Below are positions 5,653 to 54,850 of a stretch of 64,000 nucleotides of DNA, in pieces (the first letter of the stretch is position 1; the number at the start of each line of letters is the position of its first letter). The notes under the pieces are model-generated. The model saw only the letters and a program-made list of their open reading frames with translations, was not told where the DNA came from and made no database searches. A program made the translations under genes and the position numbers. Location: positions 7,255-71,254 of the forward strand of contig CAYRVS010000007.1 of the NCBI GenBank assembly GCA_964427725.1. The letters are read 5' to 3'. Origin of the DNA: an uncultured Planctomycetaceae bacterium (GTDB lineage Bacteria; Planctomycetota; Planctomycetia; Planctomycetales; Planctomycetaceae).

Positions 5653-6684
5653 ATGAGGAACCCACCCAGGCACCCGCGTTGGATCGCCGCGTGCCTGGGA
5701 GGGTGGCTCGCGTGCGTGGCCGCGGCCCGATCCGAGGATCGCGTCGTCTTTCAACCCGCCGGGCAAAGCGGTCGCGTCACGATGGCGGGGTTGATTCAAG
5801 ACTACACCGGCCGCGAGCTCGTCCTCCTCACGCGGGTGGGGGAAGGCCGCAAACGGATCCCCGCGCGCGAGGTCGTGGAAGTCACCACCAGCTATGTCGC
5901 CGCGCATGAACGTGGCCGCCGCGAGCTGGAATCGGGCGAGCTCGTCGCCGCGCAAGGGAGCCTCATGAAGGCGCTGGACGACGAAGAGCGGGCCTGGGTT
6001 CGGCGGGAAATCCTCGCCCTCCTCGCGCAGCTCGCGATTCGTCGCCGCGACTATGTGCAAGCGGGGACGCGGACGTTGGCGATCATCGAATCGGATCCCA
6101 CCACGCCCCATTATCAACTCTTGCCGCTCGTGTGGACCGAGACCCCGCCCGCCGCGGTCCCCATCGAAGCCCGCAGTTGGATTCGATCCGATGCCCGCGC
6201 CACGCGGCTCTTGGGGGCGAGCTGGCTCTTGACCAGCGACGAGCGGCCCCTCGCCGAACGGACGCTTGAAGACCTCGCCACCGACACCGACCCGGCGATC
6301 CAACGACTCGCCCAAGGTCAGCAGTGGCGGTTGCGACTCGGTCGCGACGACCTCTCGGTCGAGGGCCTCCGGCAATGGGAGCGGCAACTGGCATCGTGGG
6401 CCCCGGAATGGCGACCGGGGGGCTACTTCCTCATCGGGCGCGGATACGCCGAATTGCAGGAATGGCTCCCCGCCGCCGCCGCCTGGATGTGGCTTCCCAC
6501 CGTCTATCCGCAACGGCGTGATCTGACGGCGACGGCGCTCCTGTCGGCGGGCGTGGCCCTCGCGGCGGCCGGCGACACCCCCGCCGCGATCCGTCTCGCC
6601 CGCGAAGTCACCACGTACTACCCGGAGTTCCCGCAGGCCGAAACCGCCCGCGATCTGATCACGAAATGGATGGGCTCCCCTTGA
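5653..6684 (+). CDS. Hypothetical secreted protein (helical-repeat-like)
   Basis: 343-aa ORF with N-terminal WIAACLGGWLACVAAARSED, which looks like a signal peptide. The overlapping minus-strand ORF 5602..6690 is Arg/Gly/Pro-rich and looks spurious. Confidence 0.5.
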   Translation: MRNPPRHPRWIAACLGGWLACVAAARSEDRVVFQPAGQSGRVTMAGLIQDYTGRELVLLTRVGEGRKRIPAREVVEVTTSYVAAHERGRRELESGELVAAQGSLMKALDDEERAWVRREILALLAQLAIRRRDYVQAGTRTLAIIESDPTTPHYQLLPLVWTETPPAAVPIEARSWIRSDARATRLLGASWLLTSDERPLAERTLEDLATDTDPAIQRLAQGQQWRLRLGRDDLSVEGLRQWERQLASWAPEWRPGGYFLIGRGYAELQEWLPAAAAWMWLPTVYPQRRDLTATALLSAGVALAAAGDTPAAIRLAREVTTYYPEFPQAETARDLITKWMGSP

Positions 6685-6718
6685 TGCCACTCATGGCCAT
6701 GGGTGGGCCTCCGGGTGG

Positions 6719-9031: not shown

Positions 9032-9204
9032 GGGGGTTTCCTCGAAGGATGGTTCCTTGGTGTGATTTCTCGGCATAGAGAGTAACCATTTCCGGCATTT
9101 CGGGCGAATCCCCCTCGCGACAACCATTCTCAATCCGTCTGTGATCTCGCGAAGGTCGAGAATCCCGAAGCTCGACAACGGACCGTGTCACTTCGAGATG
9201 GCTG

Positions 9205-9921
9205 CTATCGCGACGTCAGCCATGGCATGAGCCCCGGCAGACCGATCGACTCCCGGCTCGCCAGCGGTTCGCCGTACTTCTTGCCGATCGACCAGCCCCA
9301 GTAACGGGCCCGGTCGTGAATGTCATCCAGTGGCGTGGGGAACTCCGGTGACTTCCCGATGAGGAACTGACTCTCATAACAGCGGACCGCGTCCATTTTG
9401 CGGTCCATCACGTCGCTGATGTCGACGACGAACGCCGGTTGCGGATGAATCCGTAGATGGATGCTCCAGAAATAGAAGATCGTGGGGGGATGATACGGTT
9501 CCCCCGCGAGATCGGTCCGCGTCAACTTGGCCCAGAAGCGGGCGTCGTCACAGAGTCGACTCGCGACGACATGATCAGGATGGGCATCGTCCCAATACGG
9601 GGCGAGAATCACCCGGGGCCGCGTGACCCGAAAGACTTCCGCCAACAACCGACGCGCCTCGAGCGTCCCTTCCAGCTTGCGATTCGGCAGCCCGAGAGTG
9701 TGCCGCCAATCGAGCCCCAGCACCCGTGTGGCGGACGCCGTCTCCCGCGCGCGCAACGCGGGACTCCCATGCGGCGTCGGTTCCCCATCGGTCAGTTCCA
9801 CGACCCCCACGCGCAGGCCTTGCCCCTTCGAGACGAGGAGCGTCCCGCCGACGCTGATCTCGGCGTCATCGGGATGCGGCGCGACGACCAACACATCCAG
9901 CGGCGTCTCGGGCGGTTTCAT
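9205..9921 (-). CDS. PIG-L (LmbE/BshB-like) family N-acetylglucosaminyl deacetylase
   Basis: 238 aa. [19 protein letters not shown] and HPDH are the PIG-L zinc-binding motifs. Confidence 0.8.
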
Positions 9922-9940
9922 CGATTTCCCAATACAGAGT

Positions 9941-10124
9941 AGGAACCACGAAACACACGAAATGACACGAACGAATCTTCAACTGGTGCCACCGGAGGCT
10001 CGATGGTGATTCTCGGCAAATACGGTGAATCATTCGTCGTGTCGCGAATGTTGTCGCTGTGAGTGAGCCATCATCCCGTCGTCTCGGAGTTGTTCCATGC
10101 CGTTTCGCGTATTTCGTGGTTCAT
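9941..10124. repeat. CACGAAA-rich imperfect inverted repeat (MITE-like), family copy 1
   Basis: The left arm AGGAACCACGAAACACACGAAATGACACGAACGAATC pairs with the right arm ...CGTTTCGCGTATTTCGTGGTTC. The GGAACCACGAAACACACGAA core recurs at 63285-63310 and inverted at 63505-63527. Confidence 0.55.
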
Positions 10125-10140
10125 GAATCACCTCACGGGA

Positions 10141-11256
10141 TCACGCTCCCCGCAGGGCCTGATACAGCCGATGGATGAAGGTCGCGTTGTCGCATTGGGC
10201 GTAGTGCATCACCCCCCCCATCCGCGAGAAGCTTTTGCAGAACCGCAGGTAGTACGCCGGGTTGGTCTTCGGCGGCTCGCCTTGGGACCAATCCCACTTC
10301 CCGCCGTCCTGCAGGTCGACCACGTAAATCTGATGGTCCCGAATCACCGGTTGACCGCTTTGCAGCCGCAGGTTGTTGACGCAACTGAGGCTCTTCTCGA
10401 AGACCTGCGGGCCCATGATCGCCGAGCCGATCGACAACACGACGCCGCCGTCGAGTCCCGCGACCGAACCCCCGAACAGGCGAAAATCGAGATCGGCGGC
10501 GCGGCCGATCACCGCGCCGTTGAAGATCGGATGGTTCGCGATGATGTCGTACCCGATGCCGGGATGGACCGTCAGCGGAACACCGTGTCGCCAGGCTTGC
10601 GCGACGATCGACGCCTCCTTCCAACGATGCGTGATCGCGACCCGCCCGGCGGGGATGTCGCCGTGACGTAGCGCCTGCAACAGATCGGCCCGCGCGGCGG
10701 TGAGGGGATCCTCCGGTCGCGCGCGGATCGCCGCCGACAAATCCTCGATCGTCGGCACCGTGACGCCGTCCTCGATGATCAAGCGGCCGAGCGCGCGGCC
10801 GTACCCGAGTCCCTCCAGCGCGCCGACCAACATCGCGAGATGAAGATTGGTCGACGTTTCGTGCCAAGTGCCGAACCGGCCGTTCGCGACCCCCATCTCG
10901 ACGCTTTCGGTGCTCGCGCCGAACCAGGCGTACTCCCAATCGTGGATCGTCCCCGCCCCGTTGGTCGCCAAATGGGTCAGCCAGCCGTCGGCCATCAGCC
11001 GTTCGAGCACGGCGGCCGCGCCGTTCCGCAGCAGATGCGCCCCATAGATGAGCATCCGACTCGCGCCCCGCGCGCGCGCCGCGCGCAGCCCCGCGGCGGC
11101 CCGGGAAATCGTCTCGGCGACCTCCGGGGAACATGGACGCGGCGACGCATCGGGATCGAGCCGAATCTCGTCGACCCGCGTCAAACTCTCGCGACTCGCC
11201 AGCGGAGAAACCTGCAGCCGCCGCAAATCAATCGGTTCCACGAACATCGCATCCAT
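10141..11256 (-). CDS. Deoxyhypusine synthase-like family protein
   Basis: The track ORF is trimmed to the ATG at 11256 (MDAMFVEPID), giving 371 aa. GAHLLRNG, HLATNGAG and TVHPGIGYDI resemble the DHS-like NAD-binding fold. Confidence 0.65.
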   Translation of the reverse strand: MDAMFVEPIDLRRLQVSPLASRESLTRVDEIRLDPDASPRPCSPEVAETISRAAAGLRAARARGASRMLIYGAHLLRNGAAAVLERLMADGWLTHLATNGAGTIHDWEYAWFGASTESVEMGVANGRFGTWHETSTNLHLAMLVGALEGLGYGRALGRLIIEDGVTVPTIEDLSAAIRARPEDPLTAARADLLQALRHGDIPAGRVAITHRWKEASIVAQAWRHGVPLTVHPGIGYDIIANHPIFNGAVIGRAADLDFRLFGGSVAGLDGGVVLSIGSAIMGPQVFEKSLSCVNNLRLQSGQPVIRDHQIYVVDLQDGGKWDWSQGEPPKTNPAYYLRFCKSFSRMGGVMHYAQCDNATFIHRLYQALRGA

Positions 11257-40861: not shown

Positions 40862-41875
40862 CTACCATCGTTCCAACCAGGTGAAAAATTCCGACCATCC
40901 TCGCCGCGCCTGTTCCAGCCCCCAATGGTCCTCCAACCACTGCCGCGCCTGAATGGTCATCATCCGGCGTTCGGTGCGCTCGAAGGCGGCGCGCGAGGCG
41001 TAGTAGACGAATTCACGCGGATCCTTGCACAGAAACCCCGTCTGACCGTGCACGACCTCTTCGCGCCATCCCCCGCGATCATCGACGATGAGCAGGCAGC
41101 CGCTCGCCATCGCCTCGAACCCCACCCGCGGCAGGTTTTCGTACGTCTCGCTCATCTGGATGACGCAGTGGGCCCCGCGGTAGACCTGCTGGACGGGCAG
41201 CCCCCCCGCCGGGTACGCCGTGATCCAGTTCGGTTCCCGGCCGATCTTCTCGCGGATGTGGTCGTTCACCCCCAGCATGATCCCCTCCTTCAGGACCGGG
41301 GCGACCATCGTCTCGTAGACCCATAACTGCGCGGGGTGATACTTGCCGGGATCCTCCCGCGAGACCCGCGCGAACCGGAAGCGATCTTCCGGCCGATCCG
41401 CATGAAACGGAAAGTCGTCGACATGAAAATAAGGCCGCACCTTGAACCAGCGAAAGTCGGGATTCAGCGCGATCAGTTCACCTTGCACCCGTTCGCGCGC
41501 GTGATCGGTCTGGTACAGAAACGCATCGATCAGCCCGCGGCGGTGGAGCTCCTTTTCCTGGTCGAACAGCCAGGTCATGCAGTTCACGAACGTGGCGGTT
41601 TTCGCGAACCGTTTGATTGTCTCCAAGTGCTTGAGAAACTCGCCGTTGCAATACGAGAGGACATGCATCCCGCGGCACGCCGCCCAATCACCCGGCGGGT
41701 GGACGACGCAGCCCCGGTCCTCCATCCGCATCGCCCGCAGGTGCTCATCGAGGGGCCCGGTGGGAATCAGATGGACCCGCAGCCCGAGCGCCTGCCAGAC
41801 CCGAATCTGATGATCGAGCTCCGTATCGGCCCCGCCGACCCGCGAAGGATACCCGATGATGCATAACTCCCGCAT
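40862..41875 (-). CDS. GT-B fold glycosyltransferase (GT4-like)
   Basis: 337 aa. The C-terminal ENLPRVGFEAMASGCLLIVDDRGGWREEVVHGQTGFL is the GT4 E-x7-E-type nucleotide-sugar-binding block. Its stop lies 6 nt before the start of the multi-domain GT. Confidence 0.75.
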   Translation of the reverse strand: MRELCIIGYPSRVGGADTELDHQIRVWQALGLRVHLIPTGPLDEHLRAMRMEDRGCVVHPPGDWAACRGMHVLSYCNGEFLKHLETIKRFAKTATFVNCMTWLFDQEKELHRRGLIDAFLYQTDHARERVQGELIALNPDFRWFKVRPYFHVDDFPFHADRPEDRFRFARVSREDPGKYHPAQLWVYETMVAPVLKEGIMLGVNDHIREKIGREPNWITAYPAGGLPVQQVYRGAHCVIQMSETYENLPRVGFEAMASGCLLIVDDRGGWREEVVHGQTGFLCKDPREFVYYASRAAFERTERRMMTIQARQWLEDHWGLEQARRGWSEFFTWLERW

Positions 41876-42007: not shown

Positions 42008-43021
42008 TCAGTCCGCGCTTTCGTCGGGTTCCTCAGACTTCAGGAAATGATGATTGATGAGCGCGCCCACGAGAGCGGTCCATGCTCGACGTCGTTCGGC
42101 ATTCCGTGCCTCGCGCGCCGTGAGAATCACCTCCGGGCGCGGGACATCCATGACGTCCTCCTGGAACCAAGTTTCCGATTCCATGTGATAGCGCCACTTC
42201 CATAATTTGACGGTCCGCTGTTCGTTATTCCAGTCATGGGTGGAATGGGCTTGAATCCATAATGTCGAGCCCGCCTCGTCATCTTTGATCTCGGTGGTCA
42301 TGAAGGTCACCAGCTTCATGGGATTGTCACCGCCGAAACCGGATATCCAGCCGTTGAAATTAGGGTTGGCGCCGTTGAAACCCAAGGCGTGGGTGCCGAT
42401 GACCGGGTTGGTCTCCGCCGGCCTTGCGGTGGCGGCATCGGTCAAGAAGGCGGCCCGTGTGCGGGTCGTGTCTGCCCGCGGATCGATCTGGTAGAGCCAC
42501 CGGCGAATCTTTTCACCTCCTTGAATCAAGGTGATCCAGTACCGCTTCCGCTTGGAATCGTAAGCGATACTGGCTCGCAGTTGAGTGTAAGTCTCAAACT
42601 CGCTGGTGAGAAACTTGTATCCTAACACGGTGGCCTCCTCGAAAGGCCTGTGATGATCTCCCTTGAGAAACCACAGCAGGCAACTGCCGGGATTCCGATT
42701 CGTGGTCGGATCATGTTCATCGCGACGAACCAGGACGGGTTCTTGCACGACCAGGATCGAGCGCCCGGCATCCCCGGTTTCCGGCGGACATGGACACTCC
42801 GCGAGGGTCAGGGCGTACTCCGGCAACAGCTTGCTGATCAGAGATTGCAAAGGGGCTTGAGAAGGCGGCCGAACAGGCGTCTTGCGGTTCGCCTCTTGCC
42901 GCGATTCGGTCTGTTGGGACGAGGTGGTGACCCCAATGATCAGCGCCGCGATGACGATCACGGCCAGCAGCGGCAGATGCAGGCGATCAGTTGGCATAGG
43001 CCGCCCCTTTGGGAGGATCAT
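42008..43021 (-). CDS. Hypothetical membrane-anchored protein (orphan)
   Basis: 337 aa (alternative ATG at 42997). It has one N-terminal TM segment (LPLLAVIVIAALIIGV). The GC content is clearly lower than in the flanks. I recognise no family. Confidence 0.5.
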   Translation of the reverse strand: MILPKGRPMPTDRLHLPLLAVIVIAALIIGVTTSSQQTESRQEANRKTPVRPPSQAPLQSLISKLLPEYALTLAECPCPPETGDAGRSILVVQEPVLVRRDEHDPTTNRNPGSCLLWFLKGDHHRPFEEATVLGYKFLTSEFETYTQLRASIAYDSKRKRYWITLIQGGEKIRRWLYQIDPRADTTRTRAAFLTDAATARPAETNPVIGTHALGFNGANPNFNGWISGFGGDNPMKLVTFMTTEIKDDEAGSTLWIQAHSTHDWNNEQRTVKLWKWRYHMESETWFQEDVMDVPRPEVILTAREARNAERRRAWTALVGALINHHFLKSEEPDESAD

Positions 43022-43144: not shown

Positions 43145-43236
<92 letters not shown>

Positions 43237-43312
43237 TTGCTACTTGCTGCCCCAGTGACTCAACAGTCGGACTTTCAGGTCGCCGTGACCGTGGAGATAG
43301 ACATCCGGCTCA
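43237..43312 (-). pseudogene. 3'-terminal remnant of a DUF1080-like gene (paralogue of 48514..50259)
   Basis: About 70 nt here match 48563-48631 with two mismatches. That region encodes ...PDVYLHGHGDLKIRLLGHWGSK in the intact gene. No ORF continues on either side, and the remnant abuts repeat copy A. Confidence 0.65.
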
Positions 43313-43377
43313 GTTGTGTGAATTCTGACATTCCCATGGGCCGATCGAAGTCCGTCTGACCGATCGAAGAGCGTCGC

Positions 43378-44973
43378 TCATAACGCGATCCGCATTCGTT
43401 CATCCAGGAAGTCGTACTGCATGAAATGGAAATCATCCATGAGCTCCGCGCGAATCAGAATCTCCCGGATAATGTCCTTGCTGAGCAGCGGCAGACGCCG
43501 GAATAGCGACCGCACTTTCTCGTCCTGTTGCTGGTAACTGAGTCCAATCATGTTTAATCGTCGTAACGAAGGGAAGGCAAGCACTTGAAGATCGACATCG
43601 GTCAGATCAACAGTTCGCAAGTCGAGACCTTCCAACTCCCGGAGGCGCGTCAACTGCCCCAAACCCGCTTGGGTGATCACTGGTGGGCCGTGGTAGGGAT
43701 TCTCCTCGCCCAGACAGAGCACGCGCAGGTTTCGCTGGAACGGTTCATGCTCCGTCAGTCTCGCAAGTCCGACATCCGTCACTCGGTTACGTCTCAAGTT
43801 CAATTCGGTCAGACTCGGAAAACGCATCAGGCACTCGAGTCCCTCGTCGCTTATGGAATTCCCCGCCAGCGAGAGTGAGCGGAGCTGCGGCAACGGAGGG
43901 AGGCTGGCGAGGATTCCGTCGCTGAAGCTGGGTGAGTCTGAATTGGCAATCAGGCGTACATGATCCAGATTCAGGAATTCCAGCGACGGCCATCGCGCCA
44001 GCTCGTGCAACGACAGGTCAGGATCCGCATGGCCGATCCGCAGGTAGCGAAGTCGGGGTAACGAGGCCAAGTGCGCCAGCCCAGGTCCGCGGAGCTTCGG
44101 AGAGTTCAGGATCAGGGTCTCCAAGCCATTCAGTCTTGATAGCCAAAGCAGCCCGGCGTCATCGAAATCCCCGGTCAGCGACAGTCGCTCCAAGCGACTC
44201 AGCGCGCCTATGGAGCGCAAGGCGTCGTTGGTGAAGAAACCACTCAGCGTCAATGAGCGAAGGTCCGATGCGGCGGCGACGTTGTCCATTCCCTCGTCGG
44301 TCAGTCCGTCGCCGACCAACATCAGCTCGCGTAGCTGCGGCATATCGCGGACCGCCGCCAGTCCTGCAGCGGAAAAGGGGGCTGCTCGGTCCGGCCAGTA
44401 TCGGTTCGGAGCGCCCCAGCCGAAGTCACGATGCAACATTGACGCCAATCGCAGGATTTTCAGACTCGTGAACGACTTGAGACAGTGAAGATCCTCGTTG
44501 GTGATTTCACAGGCCGCCGTGGAGGAAAATGACTCCAGATCGGATAAACCGCGGACGTGAACCATGTCGGACGAACAGAAGAAACACTCTCCGTCGATTG
44601 TGCGGATGTCTGTGACCTCGGGGAACCGCGGGCTATTCCGGGATTCACCGACGAATAAACTCCATCCCCCACCTTTCTCCGGGGGCAAGGGTTCGAGGGT
44701 ATAGTTCACCGGACAATTCCGGTTCATGCGTTCGTCGCGAGCCGTCATAGCCGGGGAATCGATGCTTTCAGGGACTTTTCCGCCGGAAGCCGACACCGCG
44801 TGCATCGAGTCGACGCGCCTTACTCGAAGCCGCGCTTCTTGATCGCCGTGATCCCTTTCGATCAGCCACGCGCATGCCAGCCAAGTTACGACTAGGCAGC
44901 ACGTCAACAGCCCCAGCGTCGGCGCCGGGGATCGTGGTTTCGCTCCGAAACCCATGTTGTTTCCGTTCATCAT
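43378..44973 (-). CDS. Leucine-rich repeat (RNI-like) protein with an N-terminal membrane anchor/signal (LRR1)
   Basis: The start is set at ATG 44973 (MMNGNNMGFG...LLTCCLVVTWLACAWL), which overlaps the upstream TGA as ATGA. There are more than 12 repeats of the L..L.L....(I/V)(T/S)D.GL..L type. Confidence 0.75.
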   Translation of the reverse strand: MMNGNNMGFGAKPRSPAPTLGLLTCCLVVTWLACAWLIERDHGDQEARLRVRRVDSMHAVSASGGKVPESIDSPAMTARDERMNRNCPVNYTLEPLPPEKGGGWSLFVGESRNSPRFPEVTDIRTIDGECFFCSSDMVHVRGLSDLESFSSTAACEITNEDLHCLKSFTSLKILRLASMLHRDFGWGAPNRYWPDRAAPFSAAGLAAVRDMPQLRELMLVGDGLTDEGMDNVAAASDLRSLTLSGFFTNDALRSIGALSRLERLSLTGDFDDAGLLWLSRLNGLETLILNSPKLRGPGLAHLASLPRLRYLRIGHADPDLSLHELARWPSLEFLNLDHVRLIANSDSPSFSDGILASLPPLPQLRSLSLAGNSISDEGLECLMRFPSLTELNLRRNRVTDVGLARLTEHEPFQRNLRVLCLGEENPYHGPPVITQAGLGQLTRLRELEGLDLRTVDLTDVDLQVLAFPSLRRLNMIGLSYQQQDEKVRSLFRRLPLLSKDIIREILIRAELMDDFHFMQYDFLDERMRIAL

Positions 44974-46465
44974 GTTCTGGCAAGACAGCCGGATACGGTG
45001 TCGCGCTGCCAACCTCGGTCGAAAGACGTACCCGCGCCGGGGAGCCAAGTGGGGTTGATTTGGACCGCGCGGAATTGGACTGGCGTGTCGTGTTCTTGCA
45101 GCAGGATGATCCCGCTGGCCTTGCAGTAGTTTTTCGGATCGTCCGGTTCGTCATAGACCGAATCGCAGATCAGCCGGGCCTGTTCATCGAATCCCGACCA
45201 TCCCCTCGGGGCGAGACCGATGCGGTGATGCACTTGGATGTCGTTGATGATCACCGAAATCGTTGAGCACTTAATTTGTATATAGTTCCCGGAGTCCGGA
45301 TCAAGTTTATACCGGGCGGCCATGAATCCAATCTCCAAACGATTCCACTCGCCGTCCGGCTGATAGCTCGCGCCGGGGGAGTTGGCCGATGGTTTCAATT
45401 CCGGGTAAAGAATCGGGCCGCGCGTATGATAGATTGCACCGCAGACGTCACCCGTCGTTAAAGCGGCGGTTTGTCCAGCGCACATCAGCACCACACTCGG
45501 GTCGGCGGCGGCGGCCATGCCATAACTATCCATAATCTGCACTTCGTATCCCTTGGCCCCCAAAATCTTCACGCCGCTATTCCCCCAATTCTGGGCGGAT
45601 AGCAGCTTGTTCGTGCAGCTGGTAAAGATTGAGCGCATGTCCGGACACCGAAATTCCAGCGCGAGGTGAAAATCCGAATAGCAACATTTCGTTCCGATCG
45701 AATTCAAGTTGCGTCCGGTCGTTGATGGGTTTGTAGGATCCCCGGAAGTCGGGTTGACCTGCCATACCCCCGCAGAGACTTCCGGCCAATTCATGTCAGG
45801 GCTTGGATTACCCGGACGTAGGGGAAGATTCCAATAGCCAGGGTTCATCAGACTCCGGATCTGATTGCACCCCATGCTGATTTCTTGCCTGCCGTCACCA
45901 GCAGGGCAGTTGCAGCCAGAACCGCTGGAACTGCTGCTGGAGCTCGTCGGGGACGAGGAACTCGAAGGCTGTCCCGAGCTGCTGCTCGAGGGACCGCCGG
46001 AGCTGCTGGATGACGACGAGGAAGAGGACGACGACGAAGAGGCCGAACTGCTGCTGGAAGATGACGAGGCGGGCCCCGACGACGAACTGCTCGACGAACT
46101 CGTACTGCCGCTGGAGGAGGACGAACTCGCGCTCGACGACGAGCTGGAACTGGAGGCGCTTGACGAACTCGAGGACTGGCTGCTGCTCGAGGAACTGGGC
46201 CCCGACGAACTGCTGCTGGACGAACTGGGCCCGGAGGAACTGCTGCTGGACGAGAGCCCGCCCGAGGAGGACGAACCGCCGCTCGAGCTCGAGCCGGTGC
46301 TCGACGAAGGGCCGCCGGAACTGCTGGACCCGCCGGAACTGTTTGACGAGGACCAGCCCGACGACGAGGACCCCCGGAGCCGCTACTGGAGGAACTCCAG
46401 GGTATCGAGGAGGACGAGGAACTGGAGCCGGGGCTCGAGGACCACCACGACGAACTGCCGCTCAT
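44970..46465 (-). pseudogene. Poly-Ser / DUF1080-like protein gene, copy P1, interrupted by a 1-nt frameshift
   Basis: ATG 46465 opens MSGSSSWWSSSPGSSSSSSSIPWSSSSSGSGG. At the G5 run (plus-strand C5, 46371-46375) the frame slips into an Arg/Pro frame. I translated the Ser frame by hand; it stays open and runs in frame into ORF 44970..45875. That ORF carries the DUF1080-like motifs NSGVKILG..YEVQIMD and ILLQEHDTPVQFRAVQI. Confidence 0.6.
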
Positions 46466-46619
46466 CCCAACATCTCCAGGCGATCACTCATCGGCCCAAA
46501 AACAAACCTTGGCGGCCGCGACATCCGGCGCGCATCCTTCCCGAATGACGCCCCCCGCTCCGTCGCGGACTCACGTGGCGCCGCTGAACGACGACACTCA
46601 TTACGCACCACATGAATTG

Positions 46620-46654
46620 AGCATGCCGCGTGAACATCAGACCCGCAAGACCAA
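46620..46654 (-). promoter_or_regulatory. Conserved 35-nt element upstream of P1 (identical copy upstream of P2)
   Basis: The minus-strand sequence TTGGTCTTGCGGGTCTGATGTTCACGCGGCATGCT lies 155 nt upstream of the P1 ATG. The same 35 nt lie 139 nt upstream of the P2 ATG, while the surrounding sequence is not conserved. Confidence 0.35.
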
Positions 46655-46721
46655 GCTTGGCGAACGGCGCGCCGCACGCGGGTGGTCCCGGTGACCCATG
46701 ATCGGCGACCGGGGTCGCGTC

Positions 46722-46817
46722 AGTCTCGTAGGCAGTCTCGTAGGCTGGGTTAGCCGCAGGCGTAACCCGGCGATCGTCGGTTAGCTTGCTGGGTTACGCC
46801 TCGCTAACCCAGCCTAC
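46722..46817. repeat. ~95-bp nested-hairpin repeat, copy B
   Basis: It has the same sequence and orientation as 43145-43236, with one core mismatch and an extra AGTC in the leader. Confidence 0.85.
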
Positions 46818-46889
46818 ATGCTGATGATCCAATACCGTATCGGCCCCCCCGACCCGCGACGGATACCCGATGACGCATAGCTCCCGCAT
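46818..46889 (-). pseudogene. 24-codon 5' remnant of a GT4 glycosyltransferase gene
   Basis: Minus-strand translation from ATG 46889 gives MRELCVIGYPSRVGGADTVLDHQH. The intact GT4 at 41875 starts MRELCIIGYPSRVGGADTELDHQI. The homology stops exactly at repeat copy B. Confidence 0.7.
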
Positions 46890-46977: not shown

Positions 46978-48510
46978 TCAAGGCGTCGGGGGACGTGGGG
47001 AATCGGTCACGGAGGTCGAGCGTCCGCCGTAGCACGGCACGGCCCGCTCCAATCGCTCCCGCAAGTCACGATTGGCGGCTTCCCGGGCTTCCCAGTCGGG
47101 GTAGGCGGCATGCCGGCAAGTCGCCTCCAGGGATTTCAGTTTCGGGAGTTTTGCCAAGTGACCGATCCCTTCATCATCTAGCGGAAAATCGTGGATCGTG
47201 ACGGACTCCAACTCCGGAAAGCCGCGCAGCATCGCCAGCCCCGCGTTACTGACCCGGGTGCCGCTGAGACTCAGAAACCGGAGCCGCGACAGCCCCCGCA
47301 GCGCCGCCAATCCGGTGTCCCCCACCTGCGTTTCGTTGAGCGACACCCCCTGCAAGCCGGTCAGCCCGGCGAGATGCACGACTCCGGCGTCGCCGATCGT
47401 CGTCCGATCAAGCGAGACCGTCTCCAACTGACGGCAATTGGCCAGCGGCGCCAGATCCTGATCCCGCACCGCCGATCCCGACAAGACCAGCCACCGCAGC
47501 GCCGGAAACGCCGGGATCGCCGTCAGCTCCTTCACGCCGGGCCCCAGCACCAGGTGCGTCAACGCGGGCAACCCGGCCAGATGCCGCAACCCCGCGCCCT
47601 CGATCCGCGGCGCATGCAACTCCAGGGTTTGCAGCCGTTGCAAGGGGCCGAACGCCTCCAGCCCGGCATCGGTCATTCCGGCGGTCTCGTCGATAAACAA
47701 CCATTCGAGCGCCCGCAGCTTGGCCACGTGCCGCATCCCCGCGTCGTCGATCCGGCCACGACCGAATCGTCCGCCGAACTGCTTGAGCTGCTGCATCCCC
47801 TGCAGATGGACCAGCCCGTCGGCGGTCACCTCGTCGAGCGGAATGCGCAGCGCCTCCAGTTTCGTCAGAGGCCGCAGGTAGTACATGCCCCCGTCGTTCA
47901 ACCGGGTCCAAGAGAGGTCGAGCCGCGTCAGCGTCGGCATCGTCCGCAGGTACGCCAGATCCTCGTTGAGGATCCGCTCCGAGGGGCCGCGCTCCAGATC
48001 GGGCAGTCGGCTAAAATCGACTTCAGTCGCCTCATGGAAATGCGCGTCGCCCAGCAGCGCACGGACCTCCGGGTGGGTCTCGCAGAGCCGCTTGGGGACC
48101 GCGATTTCGTAGGCTAATCGCGCGAGATGACTGATCGCCAGCCGCTGACTGCGGAGCACCACGACTTCCGGCCGCGCGGCTTGAAACTCCGCCAGCGCCG
48201 CGTCGGGGAGATCGACGGAATCGAGCACCAAGACCCGCAGCGACGTGACCTTCGCCAAAGACCGGAGATGTTCGGCATGAAAGCGCGGTCCGCCGATGGC
48301 CAACGTCTTCAGTCGCGGCATCCGCCGGAGCATCATCATGGACTCCAAGGGATGCGGTTCATCCGAAAGGTCGACATGCACGGCCCGCTCGACCAAGTCG
48401 CCGTCACGGATGGTTTTGTCGCCGCGGTAGACGACTTTTTCCGCATCTTCCGCCGTGACCAGTTGGGCATGGAGCAGCCAGCCCGCCGCAAGGATCAGCC
48501 GGTAGATCAT
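46978..48510 (-). CDS. Secreted leucine-rich repeat (RNI-like) protein (LRR2)
   Basis: 510 aa with the signal peptide MIYRLILAAGWLLHAQLVTAED. It has repeated units such as L.GL..V.L..T.V.D.GL..L. The ATG lies 3 nt after the P2 stop (TAAGCCATG). Confidence 0.8.
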   Translation of the reverse strand: MIYRLILAAGWLLHAQLVTAEDAEKVVYRGDKTIRDGDLVERAVHVDLSDEPHPLESMMMLRRMPRLKTLAIGGPRFHAEHLRSLAKVTSLRVLVLDSVDLPDAALAEFQAARPEVVVLRSQRLAISHLARLAYEIAVPKRLCETHPEVRALLGDAHFHEATEVDFSRLPDLERGPSERILNEDLAYLRTMPTLTRLDLSWTRLNDGGMYYLRPLTKLEALRIPLDEVTADGLVHLQGMQQLKQFGGRFGRGRIDDAGMRHVAKLRALEWLFIDETAGMTDAGLEAFGPLQRLQTLELHAPRIEGAGLRHLAGLPALTHLVLGPGVKELTAIPAFPALRWLVLSGSAVRDQDLAPLANCRQLETVSLDRTTIGDAGVVHLAGLTGLQGVSLNETQVGDTGLAALRGLSRLRFLSLSGTRVSNAGLAMLRGFPELESVTIHDFPLDDEGIGHLAKLPKLKSLEATCRHAAYPDWEAREAANRDLRERLERAVPCYGGRSTSVTDSPRPPTP

Positions 48511-48513
48511 GGC

Positions 48514-50259
48514 TTATTCCACGCTCCCCACGGATCGAATCGTGATGTTTCGGTACTTGACCTTGCTGCCCCAGTGACCCAACAGTCGGATTTTCAGGTC
48601 GCCGTGACCGTGGAGATAGACATCCGGCTCAGGATCCTGCGCGCGATCACCCCCGGTGTGCCGCGATGACCTCGTCCCCGACTTGAGTTCACCTTGGAAC
48701 CCCCCGGCGTAGCTTTCAATCGGATTGACGCTGGTATGCAAGTAGGCGTTCAGGCATTTGTCGCCATTCGCCTTGTAACGTGCCGGCAGGAAACAGATCC
48801 GCAGCGAATTCCATGCACTTCGATCCAAATGATTGTGATGAACATACGGCTCCATCATCGGGGCCAGATTGTCGGCTCGATGGCCCCAATACATGTTCAG
48901 AGGTTCCTCGGTGCCACCAATGAGACGCAGCGGACTCTCGTTGGCCCCCAAAGGGATCGCGGAGCTAACGGCGGTTTCCGGCTTCGGGAAGTTTCCCTTG
49001 ATCGGGTCGGTCAAGAAGACATCCTGGAAATACGAGACCGGATAACCCGCGACGATCGCACAAATGCAATCGGCTCCACCCGTGTTAATCGCCGCCGTGA
49101 AGCCCGGTGACAACGTCGGGTTGAAAAAGGTCTTTTCATCCGCCAAGAGGATCCCTTCCTGCGCTTGATTACTCCCAAGCAAGGCCCACGTGCCGCGCTG
49201 CGTCCAGTCGCTGCCATAGTCCAATCGGACGAACCGATTCTTTGCAACGGACGCGAAGTTTCTCGCGCCTCCGGTCATCCCGCTGTTGTCCGTGACTTGC
49301 ACTTCGTACAGGTACTTGGACCGCGCATTCCCGTCCCATCCGTAGATTCCGACCCCGCTGTTGCCTAAAAACGTTGGACGGTGCTTGTTCTCGGCGACTC
49401 GATTGAGGGGAAAGATCGGCAGTTGCTCCGGGTCGAAGCGGTACTCCAGTTCCAGGATGAAACCATCAGGATAGGAACGCACGGTTGTCACGTGCTCATT
49501 GCACTCACGCTCCCAAGGATTGGCCTGTGTCGTCGTGGGCGTCGTGACGATTCCCGTGGCCGCATCGTATCCCCAAACGTAATCACCCGCTTGTGGGATC
49601 GTCCAATGACTCCAGCCCGCCTGCACGAGACCGCCTTGATGATCCGTGCATGATGGGCGGCCGGGGCAGCCTCCCCCCGAACTGCTGCTGGAGCTCGTCG
49701 GGGACGAGGAACTCGAAGGCTGTCCCGAGCTGCTGCTCGAGGGACCGCCGGAGCTGCTGGATGACGACGAGGAAGAGGACGACGACGAAGAGGCCGAACT
49801 GCTGCTGGAAGATGACGAGGCGGGCCCCGACGACGAACTGCTCGACGAACTCGTACTGCCGCTGGAGGAGGACGAACTCGCGCTCGACGACGAGCTGGAA
49901 CTGGAGGCGCTTGACGAACTCGAGGACTGGCTGCTGCTCGAGGAACTGGGCCCCGAGGAACTGCTGCTGGACGAGGAACCGCCCGAGGAGGACGAGCCGC
50001 CGCTGGATGAACTTGGTCCGGAGCTAGGGCTGCTCGACGAGGAGCCACCCGAAGAAGATGAGCCGCCCGAGGACGACGAACCACCGCTCGAGCTGGAGCC
50101 GGTGCTCGACGACGGCCCGCCGGAACTGCTGGAGGAGGACCACCCCGATGACGACGAGCCTCCGCCGGTGCCGCTGCTCGAAGAGCTCCAGGGGATCGCG
50201 GAAGAGGACGAACTGGAACCGGTGCTGGAAGACCACCACCACGACGAACTGCTGCTCAT
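48514..50259 (-). CDS. Poly-Ser / DUF1080-like protein, copy P2 (intact)
   Basis: The start is set at ATG 50259 (MSSSSSWWWSSS...) by homology with the P1 start; the track ORF extends to 50325. About 195 residues are almost purely Ser/Gly. After them comes a ~385-aa domain with the DUF1080-like blocks FILELEYRF, NSGVGIYG, YEVQVTDNSG and LLGHWGSKVKYRNITIRSV. Confidence 0.7.
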   Translation of the reverse strand: MSSSSSWWWSSSTGSSSSSSAIPWSSSSSGTGGGSSSSGWSSSSSSGGPSSSTGSSSSGGSSSSGGSSSSGGSSSSSPSSGPSSSSGGSSSSGGSSSSSSSSGPSSSSSSQSSSSSSASSSSSSSSASSSSSSGSTSSSSSSSSGPASSSSSSSSASSSSSSSSSSSSSSGGPSSSSSGQPSSSSSPTSSSSSSGGGCPGRPSCTDHQGGLVQAGWSHWTIPQAGDYVWGYDAATGIVTTPTTTQANPWERECNEHVTTVRSYPDGFILELEYRFDPEQLPIFPLNRVAENKHRPTFLGNSGVGIYGWDGNARSKYLYEVQVTDNSGMTGGARNFASVAKNRFVRLDYGSDWTQRGTWALLGSNQAQEGILLADEKTFFNPTLSPGFTAAINTGGADCICAIVAGYPVSYFQDVFLTDPIKGNFPKPETAVSSAIPLGANESPLRLIGGTEEPLNMYWGHRADNLAPMMEPYVHHNHLDRSAWNSLRICFLPARYKANGDKCLNAYLHTSVNPIESYAGGFQGELKSGTRSSRHTGGDRAQDPEPDVYLHGHGDLKIRLLGHWGSKVKYRNITIRSVGSVE

Positions 50260-50397
50260 GAAATCGGCCCACAACTCCAACCACGTCGGTTGCTTGATTG
50301 GATTACGGCAGGGACATGCGACCACTCCCGATCCGTGGCATCCCCCGGCGGCATCGAAGGTCGACCATGCTCATGTTCCGCAAGAATGTTTCAGCAT

Positions 50398-50432
50398 GCC
50401 GCGTGAACATCAGACCCGCAAGACCAATCTCG
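50398..50432 (-). promoter_or_regulatory. Conserved 35-nt element upstream of P2
   Basis: Identical to 46620-46654. Confidence 0.35.
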
Positions 50433-50481
50433 GGCGGTGCAGGGCCTTCGCTGATTTCATTGTGGGAGAGCAACTCGACCG

Positions 50482-50548
50482 GTCTAGTGTCTAGAGTCTA
50501 GAGCAAGAAATGCGGTGAGAATCAGGGGTTTTCCCTGGCACTAGACTC
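50482..50548. promoter_or_regulatory. TCTAGA-rich repeat/inverted-repeat cluster in the divergent region between P2 and the macro-domain gene
   Basis: GTCTAGTGTCTAGAGTCTAGAG (50482-50503), the hairpin CAGGGGTTTTCCCTG, then CACTAGACTC (50539-50548). CTAG-containing motifs are otherwise rare in this GC-rich DNA. Confidence 0.3.
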
Positions 50549-50740: not shown

Positions 50741-51295
50741 ATGCGGATCACCGAAGCGGCGGAGCGCTGCGCACCGCGTCTTGAGCCCGGAAGATTCCCT
50801 TGCCGTCGAGGAAAAACCGTGCCGCTGCTTGTCGTCGAAGGGGATCTGCTTGATCAGCCGGTCGAGGTGATCGTGAATCCCTGGAATCGGAACTGGATCC
50901 CGTGGTGGCTGCTGCTGCCGCAGGGGGTTTCCGGAGCGATCAAGCGACGGGCGGGGTATCAGCCGTTTCGGGAATTAGGTCGGTTGGGACCGCTCGCGTT
51001 GGGACAGGCGGTGGAGACAACCGCCGGTCGGCTGCCTTATCGGGCGATCATTCATGTCGCCGGGATTAATCTGCTGTGGTGCTCGACGGAATGGTCGATC
51101 CGGGAATCGGTCAGGCGGGCGTTGGCGCTGGCCCAGTCGCGGGGGTTTCGCTCGATCGCCTTTCCGCTGATCGGAGCGGGAACGGGGGGCGCGAACGCCA
51201 AGCGGGTACTGGCGTGGATGACCGCGGAGGTCGAGCAAGCCGACTACGCCGGGGACGTGCGGATTGTGCGGTTTCGGCCACCGGGGCGGACCTGA
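50741..51295 (+). CDS. Macro-domain (ADP-ribose binding/hydrolase) protein
   Basis: GDLLDQPVEVIVNPWN, GVSGAIKRRAG, AIIHVAGI and SIAFPLIGAGTGG are canonical macro-domain blocks. The likely true start is GTG 50819, preceded by GAGGAAAAACC. Confidence 0.75.
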   Translation: MRITEAAERCAPRLEPGRFPCRRGKTVPLLVVEGDLLDQPVEVIVNPWNRNWIPWWLLLPQGVSGAIKRRAGYQPFRELGRLGPLALGQAVETTAGRLPYRAIIHVAGINLLWCSTEWSIRESVRRALALAQSRGFRSIAFPLIGAGTGGANAKRVLAWMTAEVEQADYAGDVRIVRFRPPGRT

Positions 51296-51587
51296 TCGGA
51301 CGGGGCGGCCGATCTCCATGCCGTTGGGAATGTCACACGGAATCGTCGGGCCGAGGTCGTCGCGGCACCGGCGTCTCCGAAACCTTTCCATCTCGCAAGG
51401 TGTTCAATCGTTGGTGGGACGTGCCGAACTCGGGTTGGACGGGTGCGGCGGTCCTGCCTGATCCCGGTTCCGAACATCGTGGCGCGTGAGACAACCGGTC
51501 TGTTCGCGAGCGGCCGTGGCTGGAACACGGCGCGATGCAGCTCAGCATTCCGAGTCCCCGCCGGCGGGATCCTCCTTCCCAGCGACC

Positions 51588-53456
51588 ATGAGGTGTCTGA
51601 TGCGGATGCGTTGTTGGTGGCCCCTGATGGTCTGCGGGGCGTGCCTGATGGGGGGCGAAGCCCAGGTCGCCCTTGCGGCGAAGAAGTCTCCCGGTGAGCC
51701 CGCGCCGACGGCGATGGACGTCGCCGCGCGGGTCGATCGTCTGATCGAGCAGGAGTTGACCCAGGCGGGGGCGACGATCGCCGGTCCCGCAAGTACCGAG
51801 GATTTCCTCAGACGGATTTCGCTCGACATCACCGGCACGTTGCCGACCCCCGAGCAGGTGACGCTGTTCGGGCTCGATCCCGATCCCGGCAAGCGGGCGC
51901 GGAGGATCGAGCAACTGCTGGCGTCGCCCGCCTATGGCAAGAACTGGGCGAGTTATTGGCGTGATGTCATCTTCCTCAGCGCGACCAACATGCGCGGCCG
52001 TGGCGCGGCGGCGACCTTCGAAGGTTGGATGGTCGACCAGCTCAATCAGAATCGGCCCTGGGATGCGATCGTCACCGATCTGTTGACGGCGACAGGGAAC
52101 GTCAACGAGAACGGTGCGACCGCCCTCTTCTTCGCCCATGGCGCCGAGCCCGAAGAAGTCGCCGCCGAAGCCTGCCGGATCTTCCTCGGCATTCAGATTC
52201 AATGCGCGAACTGTCACGACCATCCGTCCGACATCTGGAAGCGCGAGCAGTTTCATGAGCTGGCGGCGTATTTTCCGCGCACGGCGGTCCGGCCGATTCT
52301 GGTCGACGGGATGCAGCGCGGGTTCGAGGTCGTTTCGGTCAATCAGGCCCGCCGCGCCCCGGGCGAGATGCTGAAGGAGAACCCCGAGCGGCTGTTCATG
52401 GTCGCCGACCGCAACCGCGATCGGAAGATCACCAAGGAGGAAGTTCAGAATCTGCCGCAACTCAACATGGTGGCCCGGATCTTCGACCGAATTCTCGAAA
52501 ACGGCGACACCAACAAAGACCACGCGATCAGTCTGGAGGAAATCCGCCAGCTCGAACTCCCCGGGATGCCGGGACAAGGGGCGACCGAGTACTACATGCC
52601 CGACCTGAAGGATCCCTCGTCTCAGGGGAATCTGATCCAGCCGAAGTTCTTCGTCGACAACTCGCGGCCCGGCAAGGGGCTCAGCGATGAAGACCGGCGA
52701 AAAGCGGCGGCCAAGGCCTTCACCGATGTCGACAACCCGTGGTTCGCCCGGGCGGTCATCAACCGCGTCTGGCACGAACTGTTGGGCGAAGGGTTCTACA
52801 TGCCGGTTGACGACCTCGGCCCGACCCGTACGCCGACCTATCCGCAAGTTCTCGACACCCTCGCCGACGGGTTCATCGCCAACCGGTACGACCTGAAATG
52901 GCTGGTGCGGACGGTGACGAACACGCAGGCTTATCAGCGGCAGGTGCGGCCGCGTTCCGCCTCGCCGGAAAGCCTGCCGTTCGCCGCGCAAACGCCGACC
53001 CGGTTGCGGTCGGACCAACTCTTCAACGCGCTGTCGAGCGTGCTGGGCTTCCGTGAGCGGGAACCCCCCGCCGCGATGAACGGCATGATGGGGATGTATG
53101 CGGCGATGCGGTCACCGCGGAATCAGTTCAACCAGCTCTTCACGTTCGATCCGTCGACGCCGCAGGAAGACCTGACCGGCAACGTCCAGCAGGCGTTGTT
53201 CCTGATGAATACGCCGCTGTTCCGCAACGCGGCGTCCGCGACGGGGAACTCGCGGTTGGGGCAACTGCTGCGGAAGTATCCCGACGACCAGGACGCCCTC
53301 GCGGAGCTCTATCTGCTGGTGCTGGCCCGCGAACCGAGCGATCAGGAACTGAAGGTCTGCCAGACCCACCTCAAGGAGGTCGGCAGCCGTGGCGAGGCCT
53401 ATGAAGACCTGCTGTGGACATTGATCAACAGCAGCGAGTTTCTGTCACGGCGGTGA
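51588..53456 (+). CDS. DUF1549/DUF1553 (PSD1-type) domain protein with an inserted EF-hand pair
   Basis: The track ORF is trimmed to the ATG at 51588 (MRCLMRMRCWWPLMVCGACLMG signal). DFLRRISLDITGTLPTPEQV and CANCHDHPSD are DUF1549 blocks, and the C-terminal half is DUF1553-like. The EF-hand loops are DRNRDRKITKEE and DTNKDHAISLEE. Confidence 0.85.
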   Translation: MRCLMRMRCWWPLMVCGACLMGGEAQVALAAKKSPGEPAPTAMDVAARVDRLIEQELTQAGATIAGPASTEDFLRRISLDITGTLPTPEQVTLFGLDPDPGKRARRIEQLLASPAYGKNWASYWRDVIFLSATNMRGRGAAATFEGWMVDQLNQNRPWDAIVTDLLTATGNVNENGATALFFAHGAEPEEVAAEACRIFLGIQIQCANCHDHPSDIWKREQFHELAAYFPRTAVRPILVDGMQRGFEVVSVNQARRAPGEMLKENPERLFMVADRNRDRKITKEEVQNLPQLNMVARIFDRILENGDTNKDHAISLEEIRQLELPGMPGQGATEYYMPDLKDPSSQGNLIQPKFFVDNSRPGKGLSDEDRRKAAAKAFTDVDNPWFARAVINRVWHELLGEGFYMPVDDLGPTRTPTYPQVLDTLADGFIANRYDLKWLVRTVTNTQAYQRQVRPRSASPESLPFAAQTPTRLRSDQLFNALSSVLGFREREPPAAMNGMMGMYAAMRSPRNQFNQLFTFDPSTPQEDLTGNVQQALFLMNTPLFRNAASATGNSRLGQLLRKYPDDQDALAELYLLVLAREPSDQELKVCQTHLKEVGSRGEAYEDLLWTLINSSEFLSRR

Positions 53457-53467
53457 GCTGACTTCCT

Positions 53468-53497
53468 GATGCCCAGGGAAGGCCTTCCCTGGGCATC
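53468..53497. repeat. 30-nt perfect palindrome GATGCCCAGGGAAGGCCTTCCCTGGGCATC
   Basis: Read directly. It sits between the DUF1553 stop (53456) and the DUF1501 start (53543). Confidence 0.8.
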
Positions 53498-53542
53498 CCT
53501 TCAACTTTCTTCCACATCCATCCATCCCGAAAGACATCCAGC

Positions 53543-54850
<1,308 letters not shown>

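Follow-up and report, generated by a model that had tools for sequence, protein, structure and literature searches.

The 64,000-nt window analysed here, a stretch of the genome of an uncultured Planctomycetaceae bacterium (GCA_964427725.1, contig CAYRVS010000007.1) studied by computation only, carries on its minus strand two paralogous bicistronic units in tandem, P2/LRR2 and then P1/LRR1. In each unit, a gene for a serine-rich protein, P, with a C-terminal domain of the DUF1080 type is followed by a gene for an exported leucine-rich-repeat (LRR) protein, and all P and LRR genes of the window lie on that strand. The sequence evidence suggests that P-LRR is a previously undescribed toxin-and-antidote type system, and not simply a two-subunit complex.

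Two P-LRR gene pairs and the domains they encode

The coordinates confirm the arrangement described in an earlier note on this DNA, in which a poly-Ser gene is followed by an LRR gene that starts at its stop codon in both copies. The claim that the module is present twice holds in that both pairs are there, but P1 is not intact as assembled. The features of the two pairs are as follows.

50259 (ATG) to 48514 (stop), minus strand: P2, in an open reading frame (ORF) that extends back to a GTG at 50325.
49606..50259, minus strand: N-terminal module of P2, which begins MSSSSSWWW..., has about 190 residues of poly-Ser/Gly and ends in a Cys motif, GGGCPGRPSC; no signal peptide.
48514..49605, minus strand: C-terminal domain of P2, a divergent DUF1080-like domain (ConA-like jelly-roll) with large insertions, from a rare family.
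46978..48510, minus strand: LRR2, with its ATG 3 nt past the P2 stop.
44970..46465, minus strand: P1, a P2-like N-terminus and poly-Ser tract followed by a canonical DUF1080 domain, with a 1-nt frameshift at a run of five G (46375-46371).
43378..44973, minus strand: LRR1, with its ATG overlapping the P1 stop; a longer version from a TTG at 45048 is possible.
46617..46660, minus strand: leader element copy 1, 44 nt, upstream of P1.
50390..50433, minus strand: leader element copy 2, about 130 nt upstream of the P2 ATG and 93% identical to copy 1.
45928-46223 and 49679-49974, minus strand: the last 296 nt of the Ser tract, 100% identical between P1 and P2 (repeat search and blastn).

P proteins share a general layout of a short N-terminus, a poly-Ser tract of 150-250 residues, a Cys motif and a DUF1080-type jelly-roll domain. 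They start MSSSSSWWW... or MSGSSSWW... and have no signal peptide (the maximum hydropathy of P2 is -0.1), and searches of Pfam and NCBIfam found no PAAR, VgrG, TPS, LXG or WXG domain in them. In P1, the ATG (46465) and the first 32 codons lie in one frame and the poly-Ser tract and domain (46382-44970) in another, and one base inserted at the G5 run restores a P2-like protein. This homopolymer reads C5 on the plus strand, and the lesion may be an error of sequencing, a true pseudogene mutation or an on/off switch by strand slippage.

Paralogues of one genome are near-identical in leader, N-terminus and poly-Ser tract, and differ in their C-terminal cargo and in the gene downstream. From the ATG, the DNA of P1 is 81% identical to that of P2, and the stretch of full identity stops no more than 1-2 codons from the boundary between poly-Ser tract and domain; a fully identical stretch of 296 nt indicates recent gene conversion or recombination. 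The strong divergence previously ascribed to the two copies is, therefore, true of their C-terminal domains (about 33% identity over partial high-scoring segment pairs) and of their LRR proteins (28%), but not of the 5' parts of P1 and P2, at 81-100% DNA identity. Leaders are likewise near-identical among the paralogues within each of two other loci, L001 and L012; their conservation is recognisable within genomes only, not across them. The 44-nt leader is probably a promoter or 5' untranslated region element.

The Cys motif follows every poly-Ser tract (at about 49660-49610 and 45925-45870 in the window, and in L001, L008 and L012). In P2-type genes it reads GC-P-x-R-P-x-C-x-[DE]-H, in P1-type genes GSGC-x-CPAG, and the Rhs genes described below have a Cys-rich block, CxxCGCxCGG; the motif may serve in processing, in metal binding or in forming a disulfide. 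The tracts are also covered by other ORFs, at 49646-50494 and 45865-46548 on the plus strand and at 49488-50084 and 45848-46465 on the minus strand. The plus-strand ORFs are acidic (ELLLE-like) and those in alternative frames rich in Arg, Pro and Ala; all are artefacts that mirror the codon repeats, and both ORF lists and gene callers are misled by them. The called minus-strand genes over the Ser tracts of L001 and L012 are an artefact of the same kind.

These features bear on whether the poly-Ser tract is translated at all. In a decaying or mis-read locus, the tract would be untranslated, P would start at its domain and the tandem would be a functionless duplication relic. Gene callers do start P2 at VQAGWSHW..., omitting the tract, P1 is frameshifted, and mirror ORFs occupy the plus strand and other frames. 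However, the called starts of P homologues are GTG or TTG codons inside the conserved motif VQAGWSHW, and in four lineages an ATG and an uninterrupted in-frame Ser tract, of differing length and sequence, precede the domain (MSSSMPDPSSS... in L001/L002, MSSSSSSLPPV... in L008/L010, MPSSFSSDSS... in L012, and the window). Since P2 and both LRR genes are, in addition, intact and conserved, we regard this explanation as very improbable.

The junctions between the paired genes were found as the earlier note had placed them. P2 and LRR2 are linked by TAAGCCATG, and the junction reads GAATAAGCCATG, with the P2 stop at 48514, LRR2 running from 48510 and a 3-nt spacer that leaves both genes in the same frame; the ATGA overlap of P1 and LRR1 lies at 44973-44970. 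LRR1 and LRR2 both match LRR_14, LRR_8, LRR_4 and LRR_6 above the Pfam cut-off, and the sequence matches of the LRRs in the PDB are Roco, internalin and GALA LRRs. The N-terminus of LRR2, MIYRLILAAGWLLHAQLVTA-ED, resembles a signal peptide, and the hydrophobic segment LLTCCLVVTWLA of LRR1 scores 2.34, as in an exported or membrane-anchored protein. Hydrophobicity analysis, therefore, agrees with the proposal that both LRR proteins carry export signals and P none. LRR1 is indeed the AT-richer of the two, with a GC content of 0.584 against 0.659 for LRR2; the P domains have 0.56-0.57 (P2 domain, 0.574) and the window 0.641.

Based on Pfam, the P1 domain belongs to PF06439 (3keto-disac_hyd, DUF1080), with 59.1 bits against a cut-off of 26.8, and P2 falls just under that cut-off with 25.8 bits over profile positions 38-107 only. 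An hhalign comparison of the P2 family with the P1 family gave a probability of 81% and E = 1e-5 over 63 columns. Few sequences belong to the P2 family: 38 clusters, many of them fragments, matched at E <= 1e-3 among 1.84 billion representatives. A sequence search of the PDB with the P2-family profile gave no match, and P1 gave marginal matches only. An AlphaFold2 (AF2) model of the P1 domain reached a predicted local distance difference test score (pLDDT) of 64 and a predicted template modelling (TM) score of 0.71, and its top 11 Foldseek matches are all DUF1080 structures (3u1x, 3hbk, 4hxc, 9fbe, 8rr2, 8tda and 3osd), with TM scores of 0.44-0.54 on target length.

The best-matching structures include the 3-keto-glycoside eliminase/hydratases 8RR2, 9FBE and BT2157/BT2 (3OSD, 8TDA). 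The conserved channel residues of BT2 are Glu103, Asn134, Glu164, Gln166, Tyr190, Lys245, Gln273 and His275 (bioRxiv 10.1101/2024.03.25.586180). At the level of motifs, P1 retains NSG, YEVQ and LQEH, and P2 retains NSG, YEVQ and the His but reads LLGHWG, with Leu replacing Gln. P1 thus resembles the DUF1080 lyase/hydratases (BT2157/BT2 and AL2; PDB 3OSD, 8TDA, 8RR2) in its PF06439 match, its model and its NSG, E-x-Q and Q-x-H motifs; P2 differs from the family in about 100 residues of insertions and in L-G-H where the family has Q-x-H. Those enzymes, unlike P, are periplasmic lipoproteins encoded in operons with Gfo/Idh/MocA oxidoreductases and TIM-barrel lyases (bioRxiv 10.1101/2024.03.25.586180), whereas P carries a poly-Ser N-terminus and no signal peptide. 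Neither an oxidoreductase nor a lyase of these types is among the neighbours in the window or the related loci.

Co-inheritance of the pair and one-way dependence

A survey from the P side examined 11 other lineages with P homologues (L016 duplicates a known lineage and is grouped in L001-6/16). In 10 of the 11, the next gene after P on the same strand encodes an exported LRR-type protein, after a gap of 0-35 nt in most. Profile-guided scans of GTDB-species genomes and of JGI metagenome contigs found one locus each. The gaps between P and the LRR gene are as follows.

P2-type, L001-6/16: 3 nt.
P2-type, L007: 4 nt.
P2-type, L008-10: 3 nt.
P2-type, L017: 20 nt; partner truncated, with no Pfam match but 35% identity to LRR2 by BLAST (weak LRR call).
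P2-type, L018-19: 3 nt.
P2-type, L020: 200 nt; partner with a weak LRR_8 match and no clear signal segment (weak LRR call).
P1-type, L011: 35 nt; two LRR genes in a row.
P1-type, L012-13: 168 nt as called.
P1-type, L014: 12 nt.

The sole exception, L015, consists of only the last 55 P codons at a contig edge and has no LRR gene on the same strand. Every partner examined except that of L020 has a hydrophobic signal or anchor segment; no P has one. The partners of P2-type genes are LRR2-type and those of P1-type genes LRR1-type (LRR1 orthologues lie downstream of the P1-type genes in L011, L012 and L014), and partner identity follows P identity: the P2 unit of the window and that of L008 are 64% identical in P and 58% in LRR, and the P1 unit and that of L014 are 75% and 50% identical. 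A mirror-tree correlation of P with LRR (r = 0.65 overall) only restates this co-inheritance.

The survey thus bears out the expectation that homologues of the DUF1080-like gene would be followed by LRR genes elsewhere, and it rules out chance adjacency. It also supports the view that the pairing has been kept through substantial divergence, given the subfamily-matched LRRs and the 3-nt stop-start junction, GA(A/G)TAA-NNN-ATG, which is common to five P2-type lineages and in which the last P codons supply a Shine-Dalgarno-like GGA/GAG. Together, the conserved pairing, the matching subfamilies and the recurrent junction indicate that the P-LRR pair is, as judged from these alignments, an old, co-inherited unit, and that it is probably translationally coupled by termination-reinitiation.

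The dependence within this unit runs one way. From the LRR side, the LRR2 orthologue group comprises about 9 proteins of 485-497 aa at 44-58% identity, below which there is a sharp drop to generic planctomycete LRR proteins. Two members, in L021 (53%) and L022 (50%), are intact stand-alone genes with no P-like sequence within 10 kb. A third, in L023 (58%), lacks a P gene, although the final P codons (RSVGSIE*) and an identical TAAGCCATG junction remain before the LRR ATG, and this stub in front of an intact LRR gene indicates that P was deleted there. A frameshift interrupts P in the window (P1) and in L008-10, the latter with the same lesion in three samples, and in P0144 a degenerate P half is read through in frame into an LRR2-type protein. 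We rejected P0144 as a Rosetta-stone fusion, its P part being degenerate at the N-terminus, and count it only as a decayed P. No interrupted LRR reading frame was found in the loci examined. The solo LRR2 orthologues and the decay of P beside intact LRRs argue that P needs the LRR protein and that the LRR protein does not need P.

Rhs genes, glycosyltransferase neighbours and rearrangement scars

The poly-Ser part is not confined to P. In L001, the gene that follows the P-LRR pair starts with the leader of P and the same MSSSMPDPSSS... poly-Ser N-terminus, the two copies sharing 502 nt at 99.4% DNA identity. The Rhs protein that it encodes (5281-10935) exceeds 1,884 aa in length, with a TIGR03696 match of 42 bits, above the cut-off, and a 230-aa C-terminal region (CT) whose HEAVH (HExxH) motif suggests a metallopeptidase toxin. 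A HEAT-repeat gene (10948-11135, Pfam HEAT_2) with a hydrophobic N-terminal segment lies 12 nt after it, and the order of Rhs-CT and HEAT gene parallels that of P and LRR. In the P1-type locus L012, the gene after the P-LRR pair also shares the P leader and Ser tract, over 811 nt at 85%, and goes on to encode a YD-repeat/RHS-core protein; an Rhs_assc_core/CT gene comes next. L008 has a 359-aa poly-Ser protein with the same Cys-rich N-terminal region as the Rhs proteins, and then another LRR gene. Judged by these shared leaders and N-termini, the poly-Ser module is common to P and Rhs toxins.

The DUF1080 domain has a link of its own to Rhs proteins. In P0169 (47.9 bits) and P0176 (58.8 bits), Rhs_assc_core ends score above the cut-off and a PF06439 domain follows directly; P0162 and P0171 are weaker examples of the same order. 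These four proteins came up as weak matches in the exhaustive profile search; they are related to the P family and distinct from P1 and P2. The position of PF06439 directly after Rhs core tips indicates that the DUF1080 domain of this clade occupies the Rhs toxin slot. P as a member of the Rhs family was rejected, since no YD repeats, Rhs-associated core or DPxGL tip were matched in P1 or P2 with Pfam and NCBIfam.

A second group of genes adjoins the modules. Downstream of the P1/LRR1 unit, the window carries two glycosyltransferase (GT) genes with Pfam matches.

41875-40862, minus strand: GT1, a glycosyltransferase.
40855-38120, minus strand: a 911-aa fusion of a GT2, a methyltransferase and a DXD-type GT, 6 nt from GT1.

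Homologues of both adjoin P-LRR modules elsewhere, GT1 in L008-L010 (54%) and GT2 in L002/L004 (41%). Directly upstream of P and on its strand, L001/2/4 have a GT2, a pyruvyl transferase and another GT2, and L012 has a GT9, a methyltransferase and two ADP-heptose-type genes. The L012 set (5196-9041) comprises GT9 heptosyltransferase-like, methyltransferase, CTP_transf_like and PfkB genes, the last two being halves of an ADP-heptose synthase type enzyme, before the poly-Ser P. This set recalls the cytoplasmic serine O-heptosylation of autotransporters. The GT neighbours may glycosylate the Ser tract. The 911-aa fusion of the window also contains a PF04488 DXD-type GT domain and a weak TcdA/TcdB GT match; domains of the PF04488 type were listed as a toxin glycosyltransferase fold in a 2012 catalogue (PMC3482391) and are also found as ordinary mannosyltransferases.

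The GT association keeps two alternatives alive. In the first, the pair would be a cooperative surface module, with P a heavily O-glycosylated, serine-rich, lectin-like envelope protein whose poly-Ser stalk is decorated by the GTs, and the LRR protein its receptor, anchor or chaperone, kept in matched amounts by the coupling. The conserved pairing and co-divergence would suit such a module, as would the GT genes (upstream in L001/2/4 and L012 and downstream in the window, with GT1 and GT2 homologous between loci), the likeness of the Ser/Gly tracts to glycosylation substrates and the sugar binding of the DUF1080 fold. However, intact LRR2 orthologues persist without P and without GT neighbours, P is repeatedly inactivated beside an intact LRR gene, the P leader heads Rhs toxin genes and DUF1080 domains stand in Rhs toxin slots, and P has no export signal or cell-wall anchor and no accessory Sec genes nearby. 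We consider this alternative unlikely. Much the same applies to the fixed-stoichiometry complex, with the LRR protein as receptor, chaperone or anchor, that was put forward in the earlier note: the co-inherited pair on which it drew stands, but solo LRRs, P-only decay and the Rhs links fit it poorly.

In the second alternative, the two proteins would serve the same pathway without contact, P as a carbohydrate-active enzyme or a lectin in the cytoplasm, belonging to a glycoconjugate biosynthesis cluster, and the LRR protein as a co-transcribed periplasmic protein. The absence of an export signal from P in every lineage is consistent with this, as are the GT genes that adjoin the modules and, in L007, the in-frame fusion of the P domain to half of a GT2, the C-terminal one, GT2 enzymes being of a cytoplasmic type. 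That GT2 shows no homology to the GT2 that lies upstream of P in L001. A frameshift splits it, and the fusion, which may thus be pseudogene read-through, is weak evidence. A shared pathway would, in addition, leave the subfamily co-divergence, the orphan LRRs, the P remnants, the constant 5' and variable 3' parts of P and the Rhs links unexplained, and we hold it to be distinctly unlikely.

The second unit of the window is flanked by scars of rearrangement.

46809..46889, minus strand: GT1 pseudo-fragment, the first 27 codons of the GT1 gene, directly after LRR2 and truncated by a hairpin.
46734..46822: 89-nt hairpin copy 2, downstream of LRR2, adjoining the GT1 fragment and 97% identical to copy 1.
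43243..43356, minus strand: orphan piece from the 3' end of a P2-like gene (residues about 549-588), 22 nt past the LRR1 stop and cut off by a hairpin.
43153..43241: 89-nt hairpin copy 1, adjoining the P 3' fragment.
42008..43021, minus strand: a 337-aa protein with an N-terminal transmembrane segment.

By tblastn, the orphan P fragment is 65% identical over 40 aa, with 97% identity to 48562-48632 in the last 71 nt; the GT1 fragment is 81% identical over 27 aa and, against 41795-41875, about 90% identical in nucleotides, including about 10 nt upstream. The hairpin is near-perfect, resembles repetitive extragenic palindromes (REPs) in form (-57.3 kcal/mol, z = -7.4), occurs in exactly two copies in the window and matches no Rfam family. 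It is probably a terminator or recombination scar, and it looks like a REP- or miniature inverted-repeat transposable element-like sequence involved in rearrangement. The duplicated GT1 start after LRR2 suggests an ancestral order of P2-LRR2-GT1 into which the P1-LRR1-orf337 block was later inserted, and the scars on both flanks point to recombination between LRR2 and GT1 as the origin of the second module. A simple recent tandem duplication is ruled out by these scars and by the orthologues of each pair elsewhere. The 337-aa protein, which has no Pfam or NCBIfam match and no homologue in the related loci, may be part of the inserted block.

The surroundings are planctomycetal, with a PSCyt2/PSD1 gene and a DUF1501 gene at 51486-54850. 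Just upstream of the P2 leader region, a divergent gene for a Macro-domain protein (PF01661, 74 bits) lies at 50741-51295 on the plus strand. Consensus scans for promoters and terminators and a search of Rfam were not informative, and matches to the mir-449 and RsmY families of Rfam were dismissed as chance. In L011, the P1-type module has a Fic-domain gene and a SUKH-4 immunity-family gene (4444-6492) about 4 kb upstream and, about 3 kb downstream of the two LRR genes, genes for FliD and FliS; its surroundings there may be a neighbourhood of conflict genes.

Effector-and-immunity reading and known systems

One-way dependence, decay of P alone, poly-Ser N-termini on Rhs genes and DUF1080 domains in the Rhs slot are more typical of an effector with a neutralising partner. 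We, therefore, favour, with a probability of about 0.5, a reading in which P would be the effector-like cargo of a polymorphic-toxin-like family and the exported LRR protein its cognate, immunity-like partner. The poly-Ser part would be the shared N-terminal module of this family, permitting recombination and perhaps trafficking or display. P would leave the cytoplasm by a Sec-independent route, and its carbohydrate-active domain would act on an envelope or periplasmic glycan of target cells. In the periplasm of the producer, the exported LRR protein would bind and block its own P variant, and termination-reinitiation coupling would ensure that it is made whenever P is made. The frameshifted P1 beside an intact LRR1 would then be a decaying or switched-off cassette with its immunity gene retained.

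Several further observations favour this effector-and-immunity reading. The differing compartments of a signal-less P and an exported LRR protein match those of effector/immunity pairs that act in the periplasm, and an orphan P 3' fragment follows LRR1, as two LRR genes follow one P in L011. The family is also rare and patchy, and the P domains and LRR1 have a lower GC content.

Other observations weigh against it. Characterised DUF1080 enzymes are catabolic periplasmic lyase/hydratases that use a 3-keto sugar made by an oxidoreductase, and are not toxins (bioRxiv 10.1101/2024.03.25.586180). The C-terminal domains of P1 and P2 are distantly homologous to each other and have orthologues elsewhere, rather than being unrelated toxin domains that have been swapped, and the AF2 model of the P2 domain, from a 10-sequence family alignment, has a pLDDT of 38 and is unusable for fold search. 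P has no trafficking domain recognisable with Pfam or NCBIfam, the poly-Ser tract being a candidate for such a module, and no secretion-system genes were found in the flanks of the window or in the loci examined. The LRR partners, at 300-530 aa, are large for immunity proteins. Finally, the GT genes beside the modules in at least five lineages point to glycoconjugate biogenesis, for which a plain toxin model has no explanation.

Type VI secretion systems (T6SSs) provide glycoside-hydrolase and amidase effectors that act in the periplasm and are held in check by periplasmic immunity proteins, such as the Tge/Tgi and Tse/Tsi pairs. P-LRR resembles these pairs in its signal-less effector, its signal-bearing partner, its adjacent co-expressed genes and its carbohydrate-active fold. 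It differs from them in that the flanks examined hold no Hcp, VgrG, PAAR or other T6SS genes, and in that the partner is an LRR solenoid rather than a small globular protein. The serine-rich repeat proteins (SRRPs) of Gram-positive bacteria carry a long signal peptide at the N-terminus and an LPXTG anchor, and have SecA2/SecY2 genes dedicated to them. They share with P long Ser-rich tracts and adjacent glycosyltransferase genes, but in P the tract is N-terminal to a single globular domain and the N-terminus is not hydrophobic. Without a signal peptide, a wall anchor or, among the neighbours scanned, SecA2/SecY2 or other Sec genes, P was rejected as an SRRP.

The polymorphic toxins of the Rhs type offer a further comparison, for which Zhang et al. 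(2012) described Rhs-CT genes with a downstream immunity gene and orphan CT-immunity cassettes (PMC3482391). P is like them in a constant N-terminal part with C-terminal cargo that varies among paralogues, in a leader shared with true Rhs genes (L001 and L012) and in a DUF1080 domain that is also found after Rhs core tips. The pair is like them in a cognate gene immediately downstream, as judged by position and co-divergence, and in its orphan 3' fragments and stand-alone partner genes. It is unlike them in that P lacks the YD repeats, core and DPxGL, and in that no secretion system is linked. The same catalogue lists Imm-LRR and Imm-HEAT, but neither a poly-Ser leader nor a DUF1080 toxin (PMC3482391). 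As with these immunity types, a repeat protein here directly follows a toxin-like gene (LRR after P, and HEAT after the L001 Rhs-CT), although Imm-LRR was reported beside type V secretion system toxins in other phyla (PMC3482391) and the likeness drawn here is one of position.

A broader proposal is more tentative, and we would not put it beyond a possibility well short of even odds. The signal-less N-terminus and poly-Ser tract may be a new trafficking or display module of Planctomycetota polymorphic toxins, borne by Rhs toxins and by stand-alone effectors of the DUF1080 type, homogenised by recombination and perhaps O-glycosylated by the accompanying GTs. On that proposal, DUF1080 would represent a new toxin class, antibacterial and directed at glycans, that dedicated LRR immunity proteins neutralise in the periplasm.

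Within the library covered, a literature search found no description of a DUF1080-LRR module, of planctomycete poly-Ser leaders or of DUF1080 as Rhs cargo. Gene callers systematically trim the poly-Ser N-termini, which makes the architecture invisible in current annotations. The recurrent co-location with GT genes makes O-glycosylation of the poly-Ser leaders directly testable. If the effector-and-immunity reading is true, it would add a carbohydrate-active DUF1080 domain, as an effector, and large exported LRR proteins, as specific antidotes, to bacterial conflict systems. The secretion biology of Planctomycetota is poorly known, and a signal-less serine-rich module shared with Rhs toxins would hint at an uncharacterised export or display route in this phylum. 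The effector-and-immunity reading would also assign a function to some members of the DUF1080 and LRR gene families, which are very large in planctomycetes.

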